A stretch of 41,663 nucleotides of DNA, taken from a virus. A program made the translations under genes and the position numbers. Under the pieces are notes generated by a model. That model searched no databases and had not been told where the DNA came from. It was given only the letters and a program-made list of their open reading frames with translations. Where the stretch lies: UHGV virus genome UHGV-0121576; one strand, given 5' to 3'. Positions 356-39,700 of the stretch are shown here, in pieces (position 1 is the stretch's first letter; the number at the start of each line of letters is the position of its first letter).

Positions 356-1258
356 ATGCGAGCTGTTTTTGGCAACCCAAACCAACGGCCACAAGATAAA
401 AACCCAGTTGTGCTTGCTGTTATGTCACACAAAGGCGGCGTTTATAAAACATCGTCTGCAGTACATCAGGCACAATGGCTAGCATTACAAGGTCATCGTG
501 TTCTTTTAGTTGAAGGTAACGATCCTCAGGGAACAGCCTCCATGTATCACGGTTATGTACCTGATTTACATATACATGCCGAGGATACTTTACTGCCATT
601 TTACTTGGGCGAACGCGATAACGCTGAATATGCTATAAAACCAACATGCTGGCCTGGACTGGACATTATTCCTAGCTGCCTAGCTTTACACCGTATAGAA
701 ACAGATCTCATGCAATATCATGCTCAGGGTAAATTGCCTCACCCTCCTCACCTGATGCTACGCGCAGCTATAGAATCAGTTTGGGATAACTACGATGTTA
801 TCGTTATAGATAGTGCTCCAAACCTCGGTACAGGAACCATTAACGTTGTTTGCGCAGCTGACGTTATCGTTGTTGCTACCCCTGCAGAATTATTTGATTA
901 CGCCTCTGTTCTACAGTTTTTCACAATGCTTCTCGATCTCCTAGAAAGCGTTGACCTAGGCGGATTTGAGCCGACCGTTCGCTTGCTTCTGACTAAATAT
1001 AGTCTCACTACAGGAAATCAATCACGATGGATGGAAGAGCAAATAAGAAATACATGGGGATCAATGGTATTACGTCAGGTTGTACGCGTTACCGATGAAG
1101 TAGGTAAAGGTCAGATAAAAATGCGAACAGTATTTGAACAAGCGGCAAACCAGCGTTCAACACTTAATGCATGGAGAAATGCCGTCTCTATATGGGACCC
1201 TGTTTGTCGAGAAATTTTTGATGATCTAATAAAACCTCGCTGGGAGAACGAAGAATGA
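356..1258 (+). CDS. sopA: SopA/ParA partition ATPase (Walker-type), C-terminal 300 aa
   Basis: KGGVYKTS Walker A motif, LLVEGNDPQGTASMYHG and IPSCLALHRIE blocks nearly identical to F SopA; stop overlaps sopB start (ATGA at 1255-1258). Confidence 0.9.
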   Translation: MRAVFGNPNQRPQDKNPVVLAVMSHKGGVYKTSSAVHQAQWLALQGHRVLLVEGNDPQGTASMYHGYVPDLHIHAEDTLLPFYLGERDNAEYAIKPTCWPGLDIIPSCLALHRIETDLMQYHAQGKLPHPPHLMLRAAIESVWDNYDVIVIDSAPNLGTGTINVVCAADVIVVATPAELFDYASVLQFFTMLLDLLESVDLGGFEPTVRLLLTKYSLTTGNQSRWMEEQIRNTWGSMVLRQVVRVTDEVGKGQIKMRTVFEQAANQRSTLNAWRNAVSIWDPVCREIFDDLIKPRWENEE

Positions 1259-2244
1259 AACAACGCTCTCTTCTAAAAAATGCTCCGGATATTAATCGCA
1301 TTATGAGTAATAATCATCATGCACCTGAACATCAGCCGGTATCACCTATGGTTGGTGATTTAAAACGTCAACTGAGTTCATTAACCGGTAATAGCATAAC
1401 TTTGCCAGTATGCGGACGTAATGTTAACTTTAAGTTAGAGACGATCCCCGCAGATAAAGTAGAAATGGCAACAATGGTATGGCTAGGTAATGAGCGTGAT
1501 CAAGATTTATTAAATGAATCTTCTCTAGCTGATTTAATTCCATCTTTTCTAACTTCTGGGCAACAAAATCCGGCTTTCGCAAGAAAAGTGTCAGGTATTG
1601 TTGAAGTAGCTGATGGTTCTCGAAGACGTAAAGCAGCCATTATAACTGGATGCGATTATCGTGTTCTTATTGGCGATTTAGATGATGAACAAATGCAATG
1701 GTTATCGCAGATAGGCAACGACTATAGACCTATCAGCGCCTATGAAAGGGGGAAAAGATACCTGCGAAGGCTCCATGAATTTGACGGTAACGTAAAATCT
1801 TTAGCTGAAGCCGAAGGCGTGGATAGAAATATTATCAGCCGATGTATTAATACAGCCGGTTTACCTAAAGATATATTGGCAATATTTAACCATCCTGGTG
1901 AGTTATCAGCCAGAGCAGGAGACGCTCTTTTTAAAGCATATCAGGGACAGGAAGCAGCCATGAAAAATGCTGCATCTCAGTTGCTGAGGATGAAAAAATC
2001 AGGTGAAAGTTTAGATGCGCAAAGAATAATACAGGCTCTTCATGATTTCATTATTGTTGAGAAAAACAATTCACATGGAGAGAAAAGGGAAAAGAAATAT
2101 GGAGACGGTGTTGTGGCGAAATATGGGAAAAATTTCACAACATTAAAATTAGATAACAGAAAAATACCATCGCACCTAATGAGTAAAATTGAATCTATTC
2201 TTGAGGAGGCGTTTGGAAATTCTTCCGATGTAAAAAATAACTAA
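1255..2244 (+). CDS. sopB: SopB/ParB centromere-binding partition protein
   Basis: ITLPVCGR, SGNERDQ, DLIPSF, ADGSRRRKAA, GNDYRP SAYERG, HPGELSARAGDAL blocks match F SopB; translationally coupled to sopA. Confidence 0.9.
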   Translation: MKQRSLLKNAPDINRIMSNNHHAPEHQPVSPMVGDLKRQLSSLTGNSITLPVCGRNVNFKLETIPADKVEMATMVWLGNERDQDLLNESSLADLIPSFLTSGQQNPAFARKVSGIVEVADGSRRRKAAIITGCDYRVLIGDLDDEQMQWLSQIGNDYRPISAYERGKRYLRRLHEFDGNVKSLAEAEGVDRNIISRCINTAGLPKDILAIFNHPGELSARAGDALFKAYQGQEAAMKNAASQLLRMKKSGESLDAQRIIQALHDFIIVEKNNSHGEKREKKYGDGVVAKYGKNFTTLKLDNRKIPSHLMSKIESILEEAFGNSSDVKNN

Positions 2245-24773: not shown

Positions 24774-24799
<26 letters not shown>

Positions 24800-25319
24800 T
24801 CAGCAACCCCGGTATCAGTTCATCCAGCGCGGCTGCTTTGTTCATGGCTTTGATGATATCCCGTTTCAGGAAATCAATATGCCGGTTATCCAGCTCAGGA
24901 AAACGTCGCTGCACCGACAGAGGAATACCGTCGAGAATACTGGATATTTCCCTTGCTATACGCGACAGCACGAAAGTACAGAATGCGGTTTCCACCACTT
25001 CAGCCGATTCTTTGGCATTTTTCAGTTCTTGCGCCGTCGCCTGAGCACGAGTCAGGCGATGGCGCTCAAATTCAAGTGTTCCGGGGTGAAGATCTGCCTC
25101 GCTGGCTAGCCGTAATTCTTCAACCTCCCGGCGCAGCTTTTCGTTCTCAATTTCAGCATCCCTTTCGGCATACCATTTTATGACGGCGGCAGAGTCATAA
25201 AGCACCTCATTACCCTTTCCACCGCCTCGCAGAACGGGCATTCCCTGCTCCTGCCAGTTCTGAATGGTACGGATACTCGCACCGAAAATGTCAGCCAGCT
25301 GCTTTTTGTTGACTTCCAT
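24774..25319 (-). CDS. Nu1: Terminase small subunit Nu1
   Basis: MEVNKKQLADIFGASIRTIQNWQEQGMPVLRGGGKGNEVLYDSAAVIKWYAERD matches lambda Nu1 almost residue for residue as recalled. Confidence 0.9.
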
Positions 25320-25324
25320 TGTTC

Positions 25325-25520
25325 ATTCCACGGACAAAAACAGAGAAAGGAAACGACAGAGGCCAAAAGGCCTGTTTTCAGCACCTGTCGTTTCCTTTCT
25401 TTTCAGGGGGTGTTTTAAATAAAAACATTAAGTTACGGAGAAGAAGAACGGAAACGCCTTAAACCGGAAAATTTTCATAAATAGCGAAAACCCGCGCGCC
25501 TTCCGCCCCGTAGCCTGCCG
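25325..25520 (-). other. cos site in joined (uncut) form: cosB-like R-site/IHF region and cosN-equivalent (25497-25508)
   Basis: Reverse complement of 25380-25500 aligns with the lambda left-end sequence (CGCGGGTTTTCGCTATTTATGAAAATTTTCCGGTTTAAGGCGTTTCCGTTCTTCTTC...); the 12-nt overhang-equivalent reads GGGCGGAAGGCG. Confidence 0.7.
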
Positions 25521-25580
25521 GATCGCCGGAAAGGACCCGCAAAGGTGAGAATAATTATCACTTGCATTAATATCCAGCTT

Positions 25581-25749
25581 CTTCCACCATCGCACCGGAC
25601 GGGCGACTATGAGGGACAAAACCGCGCACCATAAACGCGGTAAAAACCCGGTGTGCATCGTTTTTGATTATTTCCGCACACTCGCGCAGAGGAGTTCCCC
25701 GTCGGGCTACGGTCATGGTTAATGCGGAAATACGGCGACGATGCAGCGC
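25581..25749. repeat. Direct repeat copy A (169 bp; last 113 bp identical to copy B)
   Basis: Seen directly: 25637-25749 is identical to 26587-26699; the 5-prime 56 bp are about 80 percent identical. Confidence 0.9.
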
Positions 25750-25869
25750 ATGATGTGTCAGGCTTGAATACCTTTATCCGTTAAAAGGGATATCAGTTAA
25801 GTTATCCCGTGCAGGGTATAAGCCATTATCAAAGCCACTCAGTAGCGAATGGCTTTTGTAATGGACTAT

Positions 25870-26466
25870 TTAATTAGTGATGCTGCGTGGCTTCATACAA
25901 ATTTCAGAAATATGATTCTTTTCGTCCAAATGATGCTGGACATCATTTTTATCATCACTCAACAACTCTGCTGTTAATACAATCCCTGCTGTCTCAGATT
26001 TCCAGGAAATGCTGATATCCTGATCATCTGCATCAACATCATATTTTATCGAGTAAGGACTAAAGCTACGTCCAACGAACGCATCATTTACCAGTACACG
26101 CCCACCCTGTCTGACCTGAAAGTCAACGCGCCCTGAAAGCTGATTTGCTGTTACAAGCAATGCCTTTTTTCTTTTTGTTTTATTGCTCATTGCCACCAAC
26201 TGTTCAGCCATCTCTCTTGTCACACTACCAGAAACTCTTTCTTGAATTTTCACAGAAAATTTTCTGGATGTAGTAGCATCGACATTAAAAAATCTGGATG
26301 TCATCAGGCAGTTATTAACAATTGGCATCAGCTCACTTACGATTGTAAAAAATTCCCGGTAAAGCTCATTTTGCTTTTCAACACACAGCTTTCCACAATC
26401 GTCCAGCTTACGCTCAAGAGCACTTAATCTTTCCATTATTGAATTAATTTTTTGCAACTCTTTCAT
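25870..26466 (-). CDS. Hypothetical 198-aa protein (AT-rich cargo gene, N-terminal coiled-coil), function unknown
   Basis: ORF from ATG with AGGAGG RBS (minus strand GTCAGGAGGTTTTGATGAAAGAG); codon usage is AT-rich against GC-rich flanks; the upstream in-frame 87 codons cross the repeat and palindrome and are rejected. Confidence 0.55.
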   Translation of the reverse strand: MKELQKINSIMERLSALERKLDDCGKLCVEKQNELYREFFTIVSELMPIVNNCLMTSRFFNVDATTSRKFSVKIQERVSGSVTREMAEQLVAMSNKTKRKKALLVTANQLSGRVDFQVRQGGRVLVNDAFVGRSFSPYSIKYDVDADDQDISISWKSETAGIVLTAELLSDDKNDVQHHLDEKNHISEICMKPRSITN

Positions 26467-26489
26467 CAAAACCTCCTGACAAAGATACC

Positions 26490-26507
26490 GTGCGACCACG
26501 GTCGCAC
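26490..26507. promoter_or_regulatory. sopC-like centromere palindrome GTGCGACCACGGTCGCAC (site 1)
   Basis: 8-bp inverted arms around a central AC; core GACCACGGTC is identical to the F sopC repeat core as recalled. Confidence 0.6.
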
Positions 26508-26530
26508 GCTCCTGAATACATGCCCTGTTT

Positions 26531-26699
26531 CTTCCACCCTCGCACAGGACTGGCGAGCATGAGGGACAAACCCGCGAATCATTAGCGCGGTAAAAACCCG
26601 GTGTGCATCGTTTTTGATTATTTCCGCACACTCGCGCAGAGGAGTTCCCCGTCGGGCTACGGTCATGGTTAATGCGGAAATACGGCGACGATGCAGCGC
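26531..26699. repeat. Direct repeat copy B (169 bp), bracketed by palindrome sites 1 and 2
   Basis: See copy A; exactly 950 bp offset. Confidence 0.9.
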
Positions 26700-26709
26700 G
26701 GTATTTAAT

Positions 26710-26727
26710 GTGCGACCACGGTCGCAC
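26710..26727. promoter_or_regulatory. sopC-like centromere palindrome GTGCGACCACGGTCGCAC (site 2)
   Basis: Identical to site 1, 220 bp away, same orientation. Confidence 0.6.
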
Positions 26728-26746
26728 ACGAGAAACAAAGAGATTT

Positions 26747-27058
26747 TTATGCTACAGAGGAACAAGCTGGCGGGTAATTCAGCGTAGTGAATACCGGCAT
26801 CTCCATCTTGTATGCGTAATGATACTCAGCAGTTGCTCCAGCAGACGCTTTCCAGCCAGGAAGCATCAAAATAGCATCAGCACAACGAAGCATTGCAAAG
26901 CAAATATCCATGTATTCACGTTGTGTCAGACCATTAGGCAAAGTGGCTGGATTCAAGACAGAGTGACCATGTCGTGACAAACGATCTGCCTCTTTATTAA
27001 AGGCGTCACGATTAAAGTTCTCATATCCAGTCATTGGCCCGGCAATATAAATTTTCAT
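26747..27058 (-). CDS. DUF4406-like protein (nucleoside 2-deoxyribosyltransferase-like fold), function unknown
   Basis: N-terminal MKIYIAGPMTG...NF motif typical of this family as recalled; sits between Rz and the cargo gene. Confidence 0.55.
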   Translation of the reverse strand: MKIYIAGPMTGYENFNRDAFNKEADRLSRHGHSVLNPATLPNGLTQREYMDICFAMLRCADAILMLPGWKASAGATAEYHYAYKMEMPVFTTLNYPPACSSVA

Positions 27059-27099
27059 TCACTATCCAACAAATTGAGTTCGTTTTTGATACAGAGGGA

Positions 27100-27558
27100 T
27101 TAATTCAGGCATTGCGTCTTGATGTATTCCTGCAAGTAGTTAACCTGCGCAGTTATCCTGTCGATCCCACTTCGGAGACGGTAATAATTGAGTTCAGCAT
27201 CTGCTGTAAGTCTTGGGCTTTCTCCATTGCCCATGCCGCTGGCTCCGGTCGTTGACTTTGCACAGGTGGCGGCGACTTGCAGGCGCTTACGCCCAGCAGA
27301 AACATCAGCACGGAGACTTTCGATAGTCGCGTTAGCATCAGCAAGCTCCTTCGTGTATTTTGCATCGAGCGCAGCAACATCACGCTGACGCTGCTGCATG
27401 TCAGCGATGGTGGCGGTCGCCTGCTTCAGCTCACTGACTTTTTTATCACGCTGTTCTTTGTAGGCGATGGCGTTATCACGGTAATGATTAACAGCCCACG
27501 ACAGGCAGACGATGATGCAGATAACCAGTGCGGAGATAATTGCGGTTACTCTGCTCAT
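27100..27558 (-). CDS. Rz: Spanin inner-membrane subunit Rz
   Basis: From internal Met [31 protein letters not shown] matches lambda Rz; start overlaps the endolysin stop. Confidence 0.85.
27153..27338 (-). CDS. Rz1: Spanin outer-membrane lipoprotein Rz1, embedded in the +1 frame of Rz
   Basis: Lipobox LLGVSAC followed by Pro-rich [16 protein letters not shown], entirely inside Rz. Confidence 0.7.
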
Positions 27559-28055
27559 TGCTGCCCCCACAAACAGACTTCACGCTCAATCTCACGGCGA
27601 GTCATCAGCCCTTTCCATTGCTTACCGCCAGCATATGTCCAGCGACGTAGTTGATCACATGCACCTTTGATATCGCCCTGGTTGATTTTGCGAAGAAGTG
27701 TCGATGTTCTGAAATTGCCTGCACCCACGTTGTAAACGAACGAGTAAAGAGCACCACGCGTTGTTTCCGGTATATCGACTTTGATGTACGGGTTAATTTG
27801 TCTGGCGACAGTAGCAAGGTCTTTATTCAGGAGAGCTTTGCATTCTGCTTCGGTATACGTTTTACCGAGCATAATGTCTTTTCCTGTATGCCCGTAACAT
27901 ACAGTCCATACACCAACGATGTCTTTGTAGGGGTTATGTCTCACACCTTCCAGACCATCGTTGCCGCTCGGACCAGAGATGAGCACAGATGCTATGGCAA
28001 TAGCCCCGCCACCAATAGCAGTTGCGACAGCTTTGCGTAATGATGACTGCATCAT
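27555..28055 (-). CDS. R: SAR (signal-anchor-release) endolysin, T4-lysozyme-like (GH24)
   Basis: N-terminal Gly/Ala-rich SAR segment [21 protein letters not shown] then [25 protein letters not shown]; matches phage 21-type endolysin as recalled. Confidence 0.85.
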
Positions 28056-29739: not shown

Positions 29740-29757
29740 GTGCGACCGTGGTCGCAC
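29740..29757. promoter_or_regulatory. sopC-like centromere palindrome GTGCGACCGTGGTCGCAC (site 3, opposite orientation)
   Basis: Same arms as sites 1 and 2 with central GT; flanking CT and AG extend the symmetry to 22 bp. Confidence 0.6.
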
Positions 29758-34707: not shown

Positions 34708-35008
34708 TTTCTTGTGCGACCACGGTCGCACCCTCTCTGATTTCCAAGTAACGCTTAATCCAAAGATTTTCTATATGCTTATTACCTGGCTGATTTGATA
34801 AATACCAATCGGCAATTACAGACTGCTTATTACTATCTGGTCGTGTCCTGTAACCACAAGTTGGACACCAGATAACATATTCATTTCTTACCCCCGAATA
34901 CCTTAATTCTGGCTTCGACGGTTTCCTGAACATAACTTGTTTACAAAGGCAGAATGGCACTTCCTGCCCGATGGCGTTTGATGATTTCACTGCGCTTCTC
35001 CGCCGCAT
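34688..35008 (-). CDS. Small Cys-rich zinc-ribbon protein (possibly Lar-like)
   Basis: CLC and WCPTCG pairs; overlaps the end of the upstream ORF, so the start is uncertain. Confidence 0.35.
   Translation of the reverse strand: MRRRSAVKSSNAIGQEVPFCLCKQVMFRKPSKPELRYSGVRNEYVIWCPTCGYRTRPDSNKQSVIADWYLSNQPGNKHIENLWIKRYLEIREGATVVAQENENNAI
34714..34731. promoter_or_regulatory. sopC-like centromere palindrome GTGCGACCACGGTCGCAC (site 4)
   Basis: Identical to sites 1 and 2; lies between the Q-like/zinc-ribbon genes and the downstream operon. Confidence 0.6.
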
Positions 35009-36795: not shown

Positions 36796-39700
36796 ATGAC
36801 ATTAAACGATTTCTATGCGGATCGCTTTGGCAGCGATCCGTTCTCGCTAATTGAAGCAGCACGGGATGAACTAACCGAGCTGGCACAGATGGCTGGTATC
36901 AACTGGTCTGCCTGTTCCGACAACATCCAACTCAACCCTCGCGGGGGTGTTGAGCGTTACTCTTCATACAATAAAACATCCCCAGAAGCTCTCGAAAAGA
37001 GCCTCAAAGGACGCGTAGAAATTTACTCCCGGCTGGAACACAGCAAAGGGATTGATTACCCGTTCATTAACTTCGTCCATAAAGGCAGCGATGCTGGCTC
37101 ATGGAGCGGTTTCTCCTTCCTGTTTTCTGAATATCGCCGTGAGCAACAACGGAATAATGCGACCGTGGTCGCACAACCGGAAGAAGAACGGGCAAGAATA
37201 GAACGTCAGGCCGAAGCACGTCGTCGCCGTGAAGAACAAAAACGAATTAATGACCTGAAAAACAACCAAATGGACCATGAACGTTTGCTGGGATGGCTGG
37301 CATTCCACAGTGCTTGGGAACATGCTCCTGCAGAAGACGGCTCATGGCCATATGCGATTAAAAAAGGTATTCGTGACGTTTTTAATTCGTGTGATGTGCG
37401 TCGCGTGACCAGTCACGACAGCGCAAAATGGAGCAGGGGGCCAACCACGTATATGGCTATCCCTCTGGCTCACCTGGACGGTCGTTACGATGGTCGTATT
37501 GTTGGTTGGCAGCGAATCGACAAACAAGGTGGAAAATACCAGACCAGCGCCGTAACCAGCGGCGATTTCGTCGGTGCCTGCTTTGTTATCGGTGAGCTGA
37601 AAGGGGCGCAAAACATCGCTGTTACAGAAGGTTTTGCTACTGGTGCATCCATCTGGCTTGCCACGAAAAAAGATAAACGCTTTGACGCTGTGGTTGTCGC
37701 TGTATCCGCTAACAACATGGTTCATGTTGTGGAACAACTGGTAAACATGTACCCGGCGGCAAAAATCACCTGCGCACTGGATAATGACCGGAAATCAGCT
37801 ACAGAAGGAAAAGGGAATACCGGCCTGCGGACTGGCTATGAAATCTTATCGAAATTCAACGATGTCCGCTGCGTCTATCCAACTTTTGAAGACGATCCGC
37901 AAATGGAGTGCAGTGACTTCAACGACCTGCACAAACTACGTGGACTTCGTGAAACAGCACGTCAACTGTTTGCAACTGCAAACCGCCTGAAAACTGGCAC
38001 TGATTTGCTATCTCTGACGCTCAACCGCCTGAAGACAATTAAGCGGGATAACCGTCGTACTTTTGCCAAAGAGCTGCTGAGAGCAGTGGATATTGGCATG
38101 CTAACCTGTCCGGTTCCTAACAGTCCGTCAGACTTATTTAACATGTTCTGCATCGTCCTGCGTGAAATTGGGCTGGAAAATATCTATCGCGCTACGGTAA
38201 AAGACCACATTGCCCGTCGCCTGAATAAAAAGTGCCGTATTGCCCAGGCTCCGCGCTCATTCAGCGAACGAATAACTGATCCCAATAAACGTCCTCAACA
38301 TATCACCTATAAGCGTTTTGAAACTTCGGTAATGACCGATGACGTCCTGAAGTATGTGCAATCACTACAGGGGATAGTCATCGTTCGTGCTGGTATGGGT
38401 TCCGGCAAATCTACTGGATTGTTACGACCTTTAATGCATAGCTCAGAACGTGGTATCTCTGTTGCTCACCGTGTTTCCCTTATTGGTGGCCTGTGGGAAA
38501 TGATGACAGAAGGAAAAGGTGTAAAAGCCGATATCCTGCACTATCAGGACCCTGGCTATCAGGAAATGGCTCCATACGCCAGTAAACTGACCATCTGCAT
38601 AAACTCGATTGTTAAAAACTGCTGGCAACCATTGATGCGCCAGCACGACTATTTTGGCTTTGACGAGGCCACGCAAGGGCTACGTGCCGTTCTTTCCGGT
38701 CGGGCTATGGAAAACCCGGTGGCTGTATTCAATACGTTAATTGACGCGCTGGCCAGAACGGAACAACACCCAATAATGGTGGATGCTGATGCGAACGATC
38801 TGCTGGTTGACCTGGCTGAACTGGCTATGAAACGCCGTGAAGAACTAGGTTTACCGGCATGGCTGCAGATCCACGTAATTGAATTACCTGTTGATGTTCG
38901 CAACCGCGAAACAGGTGAGCCAATCCGGGTTTTTTATACAGAAAAAGATCGCATTATGACCGAGGTGGTGAAAGCTGTATCGAATGGCGAAAAAATCATG
39001 TTGGCCACCGACAGCTCCACCTTTGCAGAAGATGTGACCGCCACCCTGAGAATGCATTTTCCTGGTAAGAAATTTCTGTGTGTAAACCAGAAAAACAAAC
39101 CAGAGCCAGAAGTTGAAGCATTTACCAATCAACCGAAAAAGATGGTCAAAAAATACGACGGCCTGATTTATAGCCCGTCTATTTCATCCGGTGTGTCGAT
39201 TGAGCAAAAACATTTTGACCGTCATTTCGGCATGTTCTGTGGTGAAGTTGTACCCAGCGACGCAGTGCAAATGCTACGCCGCGACCGTACAGCAAAAGAA
39301 TTTATTATCGGCTTTGATAAAGCTCGCGCAAAACGTGAAACTGACCCGCAAAAAATAGAACGAGCATTCGCCCAGGCATTGCTTGCTACCGCAGGCATGA
39401 ACGGTGAACTGACGGATGTCGTTTTCGATGGCGACCGTATATCAATGGGGGTGGCCAATACCGACTTTACCAGGATGAAAATTAAAGCAGCCGCAATTGA
39501 AGCGTCTGCGCGTAACGACTACGCCAGCAACATGATCTGCATCATGCACAGCGACGGTTATAAGGTATCGCCGCTGGCCACCGATTATGCTGCGAATGAT
39601 ATCGGTAAAGATCTGCGTAAAGAAGCGCGGGATATTGTGTGGGAACAGACACTGGATCTGCATCTCAATACAGAAACTCCACAAGAATCAGAGCGTGAAG

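Follow-up and report, generated by a model that had tools for sequence, protein, structure and literature searches.

A repeated putative post-lysis module and candidate SopB sites around a truncated cargo gene near cos of an N15-like phage-plasmid

Why should a phage genome carry, between its lysis genes and its cohesive-end site (cos), two direct copies of one short segment, with an AT-rich open reading frame (ORF) between them and a pair of identical palindromes around one copy? The question is raised by the virus genome UHGV-0121576, a stretch of 41,663 nucleotides that was analysed at its full length and is termed the window here. The repeat, the ORF and the palindromes are not chance features. 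We consider it likely that the two segments are copies of a conserved module flanking a decayed cassette, which is gained and lost and whose flanks are homogenised by recombination, and that the palindromes are SopB sites.

The window is an N15-like linear phage-plasmid with its late genes on the minus strand, since it encodes SopA/SopB, RepA-like (1331 residues) and lambda-type Nu1 proteins and its positions 25300-27100 are 99.9% identical to Escherichia phage YDC107_1 (Ravinvirus, N15 group). The same interval shares 99.3% identity with PhiR46_1, and a terminase A gene accompanies that of Nu1. In the late direction the order is holin, lysozyme, Rz, a DUF4406 gene, the palindrome IR4a, the second repeat copy (unit B), the palindrome IR4b and the truncated accessory gene, followed by a deletion scar, a spacer with a hairpin, the cos-proximal repeat copy (unit A), cosQ/cosN and Nu1.

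The repeat comprises two alleles of a pan-lambdoid module

A repeat search paired positions 25563-25749 with 26513-26699 (187 nt, 91% identity, spacing 950), and pairwise alignment narrowed the core to 25577-25749 and 26527-26699, which are identical at 162 of 173 positions. The core consists of an unbroken 113-bp identical run (25637-25749, equal to 26587-26699) and a further 60 bp with 49 matches (82%). These values agree with a first-pass annotation made from the sequence alone, which had reported a segment repeated 950 bp away, with 113 bp identical and the rest about 80% alike. A covariance model built from homologues detected a ~178-nt module exactly twice in the 41.6-kb window, each time on the minus strand: unit A at 25573-25750 (207 bits) and unit B at 26523-26700 (205.6 bits). 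The 5' 113 nt of the two units are identical. They have a clade-specific 5' part in common and carry different 3' alleles, the 3' third of unit B being Ayreon-like. The repeat was annotated as lying right at the lysis side of cos; it is indeed near cos, but a cosQ-like stretch separates it from cosN, at a distance of about 65-70 bp.

With a 361-nt query comprising unit A and flanking sequence, 504 phage records were matched, and many of the Stx-phage matches start and stop at the repeat edges. By megablast, the unit was found in 3,170 of 5,426 complete E. coli genomes (58%), with up to seven copies in each. It lies between bor and lambdap78 in lambda (46868-47032), between borD and ybcV in the K-12 prophage DLP12, between bor and terS in VT2-Sakai and before the HNH endonuclease gene in Stx phage 1717, and it also occurs in Ayreon/mEp460; the covariance model found no unit in the N15 genome. 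In lambda, DLP12 and the Stx phages the unit is single-copy, and it keeps its post-lysis position despite unlike packaging modules. Each window allele also occurs alone: unit B with a palindrome (inverted repeat, IR) directly at cos in two other sequences (L126 and L100), and an IR-unit-cos arrangement in NZ_CP148365. On these comparisons, units A and B are two alleles of a ~178-nt non-coding pan-lambdoid module rather than as products of a local duplication, which replaces the first-pass description of a duplicated cos-adjacent segment.

Duplication of the DNA beside cos within this lineage, arising de novo in tandem or as a segment through slippage or unequal exchange and with the ORF captured between the copies, would fit two direct copies that lie 950 bp apart and share a 113-bp identical run. 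We regard it as quite unlikely. The 3' thirds are different alleles, each found alone in other phages, and a recent conversion patch (see below) accounts for the identical 5' run. Moreover, the copies of relatives with a full cassette are less alike, at 92-94% in PhiR46_1 and, for the sequence L136, at 89% and 92% to window unit A.

The unit resembles the linkers of lambdoid mosaicism, which are likewise short non-coding segments with sharp homology edges between unrelated flanking modules; in different phages the packaging genes that flank it are of the lambda, HK97 or 933W type. Module exchange in lambdoid mosaicism is said to be mediated by conserved boundary or linker sequences, in work attributed to Juhala et al. 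2000 and Clark et al. 2001.

Known genes and promoters were also considered as identities of the unit and rejected. The gene ylcI (YlcI/YnfO, DUF3950) adjoins the unit in PhiR34_1 and K. oxytoca and lies outside it. A reading as the bor/iss promoter is at odds with the presence of the unit without bor in Ayreon, Stx phage 1717 and the window, and with a pairing bias that favours the late strand.

Block polymorphism points to recombination between the units

The first-pass annotation had placed a cargo block at the Rz-to-cos site and had proposed that relatives be compared for its presence or absence as a unit. The block does lie between the lysis genes and cos, and full, truncated and cassette-less forms were all found. 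Among complete E. coli genomes, 28 carry the full cassette, four share the truncation seen in the window and five have the cassette-less order DUF4406-IR-unit-cos, four of these on the chromosome. Two further sequences (L135 and L137) show other, independent partial decays. A full cassette together with a third IR beside cos is present in L031 and L136, and a truncated unit joined to an IR and cos is present in L093 and, alongside its full cassette, at the cos-proximal end of L031. In these truncated units of N15-like genomes (L031 10704-10854 and L093 4558-4693), nothing but the first ~70 nt remains, and it is fused to an IR ~50 bp from cos, which indicates that the unit and a centromere site have become linked in different ways.

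The cassette-less NZ_CP148365 lacks exactly the repeat-bounded block and has the order DUF4406-IR-one unit-cos. Over 177 nt, its single unit does not differ from window unit A (100% identity), and its 5' flank is that of unit B. This unit is the exact chimera, with a B-type 5' side and an A-type 3' side, that is expected of a crossover between the copies. A second trace of exchange was observed in the window itself. Over positions 25219-27106 it differs from YDC107_1 at only two sites, 25690 and 25694, both of which lie in unit A and match unit B. They are best read as a gene-conversion patch in unit A, which would account for the 113-bp identity.

Since the units share over 100 bp of identical sequence in direct orientation, homologous recombination between them is expected, in which a crossover would delete the block and gene conversion would homogenise the copies. 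As for the origin of the arrangement, each configuration occurs separately, so a crossover inside the unit, between an IR-unit-cos genome and a unit-IR-cargo-unit-cos genome, would be the simplest and most likely source. The window block also shares the position of the lambdoid accessory regions between Rz and cos, such as bor/lambdap78/lambdap79 of lambda and borD-ybcV-ybcW-ylcI of DLP12. They have in common an atypical composition, a variable content and exchange at short conserved sequences. Compared to lambda and DLP12, the window cargo carries genes of the families phrog_2571 and phrog_3054 in place of bor, runs in the late direction, has no detected promoter and is partly deleted.

The gain or loss by recombination between repeats that the first-pass annotation proposed is thus backed by a putative crossover product and a conversion patch, but as a case of ordinary lambdoid mosaicism in a known phage-plasmid family, which is what the cargo locus is. 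In this sense the result is useful and unsurprising. It provides a clean case in which short conserved non-coding segments drive the gain, loss and homogenisation of accessory genes, with crossover and conversion products both found.

The palindromes match N15-type SopB sites

N15 reportedly has dispersed SopB centromere sites, termed IR1-IR4, in accounts attributed to Ravin & Lane 1999 and Grigoriev & Lobocka 2001. In the window, the 18-bp palindrome GTGCGACCACGGTCGCAC occurs at 26490-26507 (IR4b) and 26710-26727 (IR4a), in identical copies that flank unit B as the first-pass annotation had noted. It is base-for-base the N15 IR1/IR4 site that was used in the construction of an N15 centromere array (PMC7205306, Table 4). 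The N15 sites differ from those of F at one position per half-site (PMC2910045). The window palindromes fit the half-site pattern of N15 IR1-IR4, GTGCGACC-NN-GGTCGCAC, and both copies are exact IR1/IR4 matches. The palindromes, which the first-pass annotation had left unexplained, therefore appear to be N15-type SopB centromere (partition) sites.

A pattern scan of the window allowing up to three mismatches gave 10 matches over both strands, representing five sites, against a chance expectation of 0.01. In addition to IR4a and IR4b, these are a site at 29740-29757, upstream of the late promoter region and syntenic with N15 IR3; a site at 34714-34731, the counterpart of N15 35930; and a site at 37157-37174, which has one mismatch, lies inside the repA-like 1331-residue gene and corresponds to N15 33479 in gene 37. 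A scan of the N15 genome found four sites: 45561, which is close to cos and between genes 58 and 59, 41124, 35930, and 33479, which is within repA. The window sites are syntenic with those of N15, the single N15 IR4 corresponding to two window sites 220 bp apart. Overall, the two elements have the identical 18-bp palindrome and correspond in its placement, with sites within repA, past the Q region, ahead of the late promoter region and close to cos; they differ in that the window has five sites and N15 four, that the cos-proximal site of the window is doubled and brackets unit B, and that the window sopA is frameshifted.

IR4b lies 23 bp upstream of the ATG of the AT-rich ORF, six bases before its AGGAGG, whereas IR4a is separated from unit B by 10 bp and follows the DUF4406 gene at 19 bp; it is the only IR retained in the cassette-less NZ_CP148365. 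Relatives carry one, two or three IR sites in the interval between DUF4406 and cos. The number of SopB sites near cos thus varies from one to three within a recombination hot spot, which bears on how dispersed centromeres evolve.

The candidate binder of these sites is the window SopB (1255-2244, plus strand; Pfam PF18090 SoPB_HTH, E = 1.6e-23), which is 74% identical to N15 SopB, the helix-turn-helix region included. Its partner SopA, a ParA-type ATPase (77-1258), is split into ORFs at 77-354 and 356-1258 by a 13-nt insertion near 330-342. The insertion is present neither in N15 sopA nor in the closest plasmids listed (spans of 1285-1287 for a 1300-nt query), and the split reflects either a frameshifted partition ATPase or an assembly error.

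The palindromes might instead serve mainly as intrinsic terminators or insulators of the late transcript. The GenBank record of N15 marks IR4 (45560-45584) as a putative rho-independent terminator, and IR4b, with GTATCTTTGT behind it on the late (minus) strand, was scored as a terminator-like hairpin. However, IR4a is not followed by a T-run, N15 SopB sites that were used in experiments have the identical 18-bp sequence, and further copies lie within repA and ahead of the late promoter, positions at which a terminator would make poor sense. We therefore hold a mainly terminating role to be unlikely; a terminator function is possible and compatible with a centromere role, and comes second to the exact centromere match.

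The same palindromes could be taken for traces of a mobile element, with the ORF delivered between the ends of a miniature inverted-repeat transposable element or an insertion sequence-like insertion and a target duplicated in the process. Identical 18-bp palindromes (at 26490 and 26710) bracket a short block, and direct repeats flank an AT-rich gene. Nevertheless, neither a transposase nor an integrase is encoded in or beside the block, the repeats are direct and 178 bp long rather than terminal inverted repeats, the palindrome is the N15 centromere site and recurs at three more places syntenic with N15, and the unit stands in single copy at the same syntenic position in hundreds of phages. 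We give this explanation almost no credence and retain the SopB-site assignment.

In RNA of the minus strand (26485-26732), the two IR copies could pair into a 19-bp stem enclosing unit B, with a minimum free energy of -99.3 kcal/mol (z-score -2.95); each IR copy could also form a hairpin of its own. The palindrome is also present within the DUF4406-IR-unit-cos block of chromosomal E. coli prophages, a setting with no evident need for a plasmid partition site. The chromosomes with this block are NZ_CP178656.1, NZ_AP022287.1, NZ_CM143883.1 and NZ_OZ001712.1, so that SopB sites even travel into chromosomal prophages.

The cargo ORF is a remnant of a two-gene cassette

The ORF between the units (25870-26466, minus strand) encodes 198 residues. 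Its ATG is preceded at 7 nt by AGGAGG, and the GC content of 0.37-0.42 contrasts with 0.51-0.57 in the flanks, as expected from the AT-rich ORF with a strong ribosome-binding site described in the first-pass annotation. The protein matches phrog_2571 (E = 8.9e-108), and the match covers profile positions 1-200 of 291. The common homologue form has 286 residues (448 member sequences, P0001) and runs on as ...ICMKPRS|GMTLLSR..., whereas the window ORF ends as ...ICMKPRS|ITN*. The window ORF thus consists of about the first 195 codons of the 286-residue protein, plus three foreign codons and a stop. A reading of the homologues as N-terminal extensions, from a GTG start through unit B, was rejected, as the sequences show a C-terminal extension; by this extension the truncation of the window ORF was recognised. 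Similarly, a mechanical 285-residue GTG ORF (25870-26727, minus strand), which runs from inside IR4a through unit B and IR4b, is probably an artefact. By chance its length is near that of the real homologues.

Comparison with PhiR46_1 revealed that the window lacks 826 bp (L001 2091-2916). The BLAST segments on either side of the gap (L001 1701-2090 and 2917-3585) overlap by the 7 bp GCTGCGT, one copy of which remains in the window as the deletion scar (25882-25888). Such an overlap is a signature of microhomology deletion. The missing 826 bp comprise the last third of the 286-residue gene and nearly all of a downstream 149-residue gene of phrog_3054, both of which are intact in PhiR46_1 and in the 28 E. 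coli genomes with the full cassette. The cassette has thus been eroded by an event unrelated to the exchange between the units, the 198-residue ORF is a 3'-truncated remnant rather than an intact moron, and what remains of the window cassette is probably non-functional. The moron of the first-pass annotation therefore stands as an accessory block that is polymorphic among relatives, but with a truncated cargo gene. A moron in the strict sense would have a promoter of its own, and a consensus scan of the minus strand, which is weak evidence, found no sigma-70-like site upstream of the ORF.

Homologues of the 198-residue ORF were found in 16 clusters among 5.8 billion proteins, all from Escherichia and mostly on ~46-kb contigs, and an exhaustive HMMER search yielded just 10 representatives. 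The ORF has no homology to N15 gp59, which occupies the same position. The first-pass annotation had suggested database comparison and structure prediction for this protein; the former yielded the 286-residue homologues, whereas the single-sequence structure prediction was poor, with a predicted local distance difference test score (pLDDT) of 46. By comparison, the 149-residue protein is widespread in Enterobacteriaceae prophages (488 clusters). Its structure, predicted with 39 sequences, is helical with two transmembrane-like segments (pLDDT 65), and the model has no meaningful fold match in the PDB. PADLOC defence models gave two marginal matches to the cargo proteins (E = 0.01 and 0.05). 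A role of the 149-residue protein in exclusion or defence is a reasonable guess. In the six examined prophage contigs that carry two of these homologues (P0069 and P0083), the phrog_3054 gene is located just after N or next to sieB. Such homologues stand in the early-left operon of P22-like and lambdoid prophages (L139-L145) without the 286-residue partner, which indicates that the cassette genes are not an obligate pair.

Several points weigh against the account of the locus given above. The direction of change cannot be proved, and the cassette-less plasmid may show the ancestral state instead of having lost the block. As for the two-site patch, it is just as possible that the YDC107_1 copy was converted by another prophage. 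The truncated ORF retains a strong ribosome-binding site and 195 native codons, and may have some residual function. The cassette proteins have no significant match in Pfam, NCBIfam, PADLOC or the PDB. Finally, the partition system may be inactive in this window, given the frameshifted sopA.

The unit is a candidate structured RNA

Both window copies contain an ATG-initiated ORF on the late strand, of 49 and 66 residues (MTVARRG...), which might suggest that a small protein gene had been duplicated. This ORF is poorly kept among 58 distinct units: the ATG of the 49-residue ORF is missing in 30, an ORF of only 11 codons is left in 11, and about 48 codons are kept in only 10. One-base insertions or deletions occur inside it, neither Pfam nor PHROG gave a match, and the substitutions keep base pairing instead. 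A protein-coding unit is thus highly improbable, and the unit is best regarded as non-coding.

The predicted structure consists of some seven helices, among them P1 (7 bp) and P2 (11 bp). When 20 diverse copies were aligned with MAFFT, 96.8% of cells were paired, compared to 39-62% with slid partners, and five pairs showed changes on both sides. In a model-fitted alignment of the 58 distinct copies, 97.6% of cells are paired and 10 pairs show double changes, and none of 500 shuffles reached any of the measures; the unit sequences are closely related and mosaic, and one of the two alignments was fitted to the model. Slid-partner controls over both alignments gave 31-62% of cells paired. G.U cells outnumber A.C cells by 211 to 12, which points to the late strand as the RNA strand. 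RNAalifold gave -30.5 for the late strand and -15.2 for the opposite strand. A single-sequence fold of unit A also yields P1-P3, with a z-score of merely -1.4. The unit thus displays the generic features of a structured RNA, namely helices, compensatory changes, strand-specific G.U pairs and no conserved ORF. Compared to the linkers of lambdoid mosaicism, it differs in these compensatory changes and in the one-strand bias of G.U over A.C, which suggests selection on RNA structure beyond hitch-hiking homology.

The unit matches no Rfam 15 family, AgvB, AsxR and STnc100 included: there was no gathering-level match in the whole window, and only chance-level matches (E > 0.2) at 25300-27100. A literature search found no paper that describes it. 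Prophage small RNAs such as AgvB, AsxR, StxS, HnrS, Pas and svsR are similar in being multicopy, non-coding and located at conserved positions of lambdoid prophages. However, they are 50-80 nt long and mostly found within cI or downstream of Q or PR', and several of them occur only in enterohaemorrhagic or enteropathogenic E. coli, whereas the unit is ~178 nt long, follows the lysis genes and is present in K-12 DLP12 and lambda. As size, place or distribution differ, svsR, Pas, AgvB/AsxR and HnrS were rejected as identities of the unit.

Altogether, we tentatively propose, at somewhat less than even odds, that the late transcript of lambdoid phages contains, in the unit, a structured RNA element that is so far undescribed and has a conserved function. 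Such an RNA may act in transcript processing or stability, or may control expression across the lysis-packaging junction; the role of the unit as a recombination substrate and its association with SopB sites in N15-like plasmids would then be secondary to the RNA function. This is the part of the analysis that could be new. If true, lambda, a virus that is among the best studied, and most E. coli genomes would contain an easily testable, unannotated RNA element.

Genes and sites around the cargo locus

On the cos side, the terminase small subunit Nu1 is the first gene past cos on the late strand (24774-25319, minus strand; Pfam PF07471 Phage_Nu1, E = 1.3e-95). The final 51 bases of lambda (48452-48502) align with window positions 25560-25509 at 86.5% identity, which puts the virion right end at 25509 and the 12-nt cohesive-end site cosN at 25497-25508 (minus strand; late strand GGGCGGAAGGCG). 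The cosQ-like flank beside cosN reaches to about 25560.

Between unit A and the truncated ORF lies a conserved spacer (25751-25869, minus strand), which many phages have ahead of their unit. A terminator-like hairpin in the spacer, AAAGCCA...TGGCTTT (25831-25856), is downstream of the 198-residue ORF. A 90-nt part of the spacer (25862-25773) shares 96.7% identity with a stretch close to the right end of Shigella phage Sf6, and the spacer sequence is also present in Emek, mEp235 and HK140, which are without the unit. The spacer is a second short conserved post-lysis module. In the record of Ayreon, a terminator is annotated 70 bp upstream of the unit, in the region that corresponds to the window spacer.

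On the lysis side, the DUF4406 gene (26747-27058, minus strand) encodes a nucleoside 2-deoxyribosyltransferase-like protein (Pfam PF14359, E = 3.7e-34). It is a homologue of N15 gene 57, with 84% tblastn identity to the gene 57 region. The spanin gene Rz (27100-27570, minus strand; Pfam PF03245, E = 8.6e-41) ends the lysis cassette. Its 3' part (27107-27345) is an allele unlike that of YDC107_1, with ~100 differences, compared to the two in the 1.9 kb on the cos side. This switch of alleles within Rz probably marks a further boundary of mosaic exchange.

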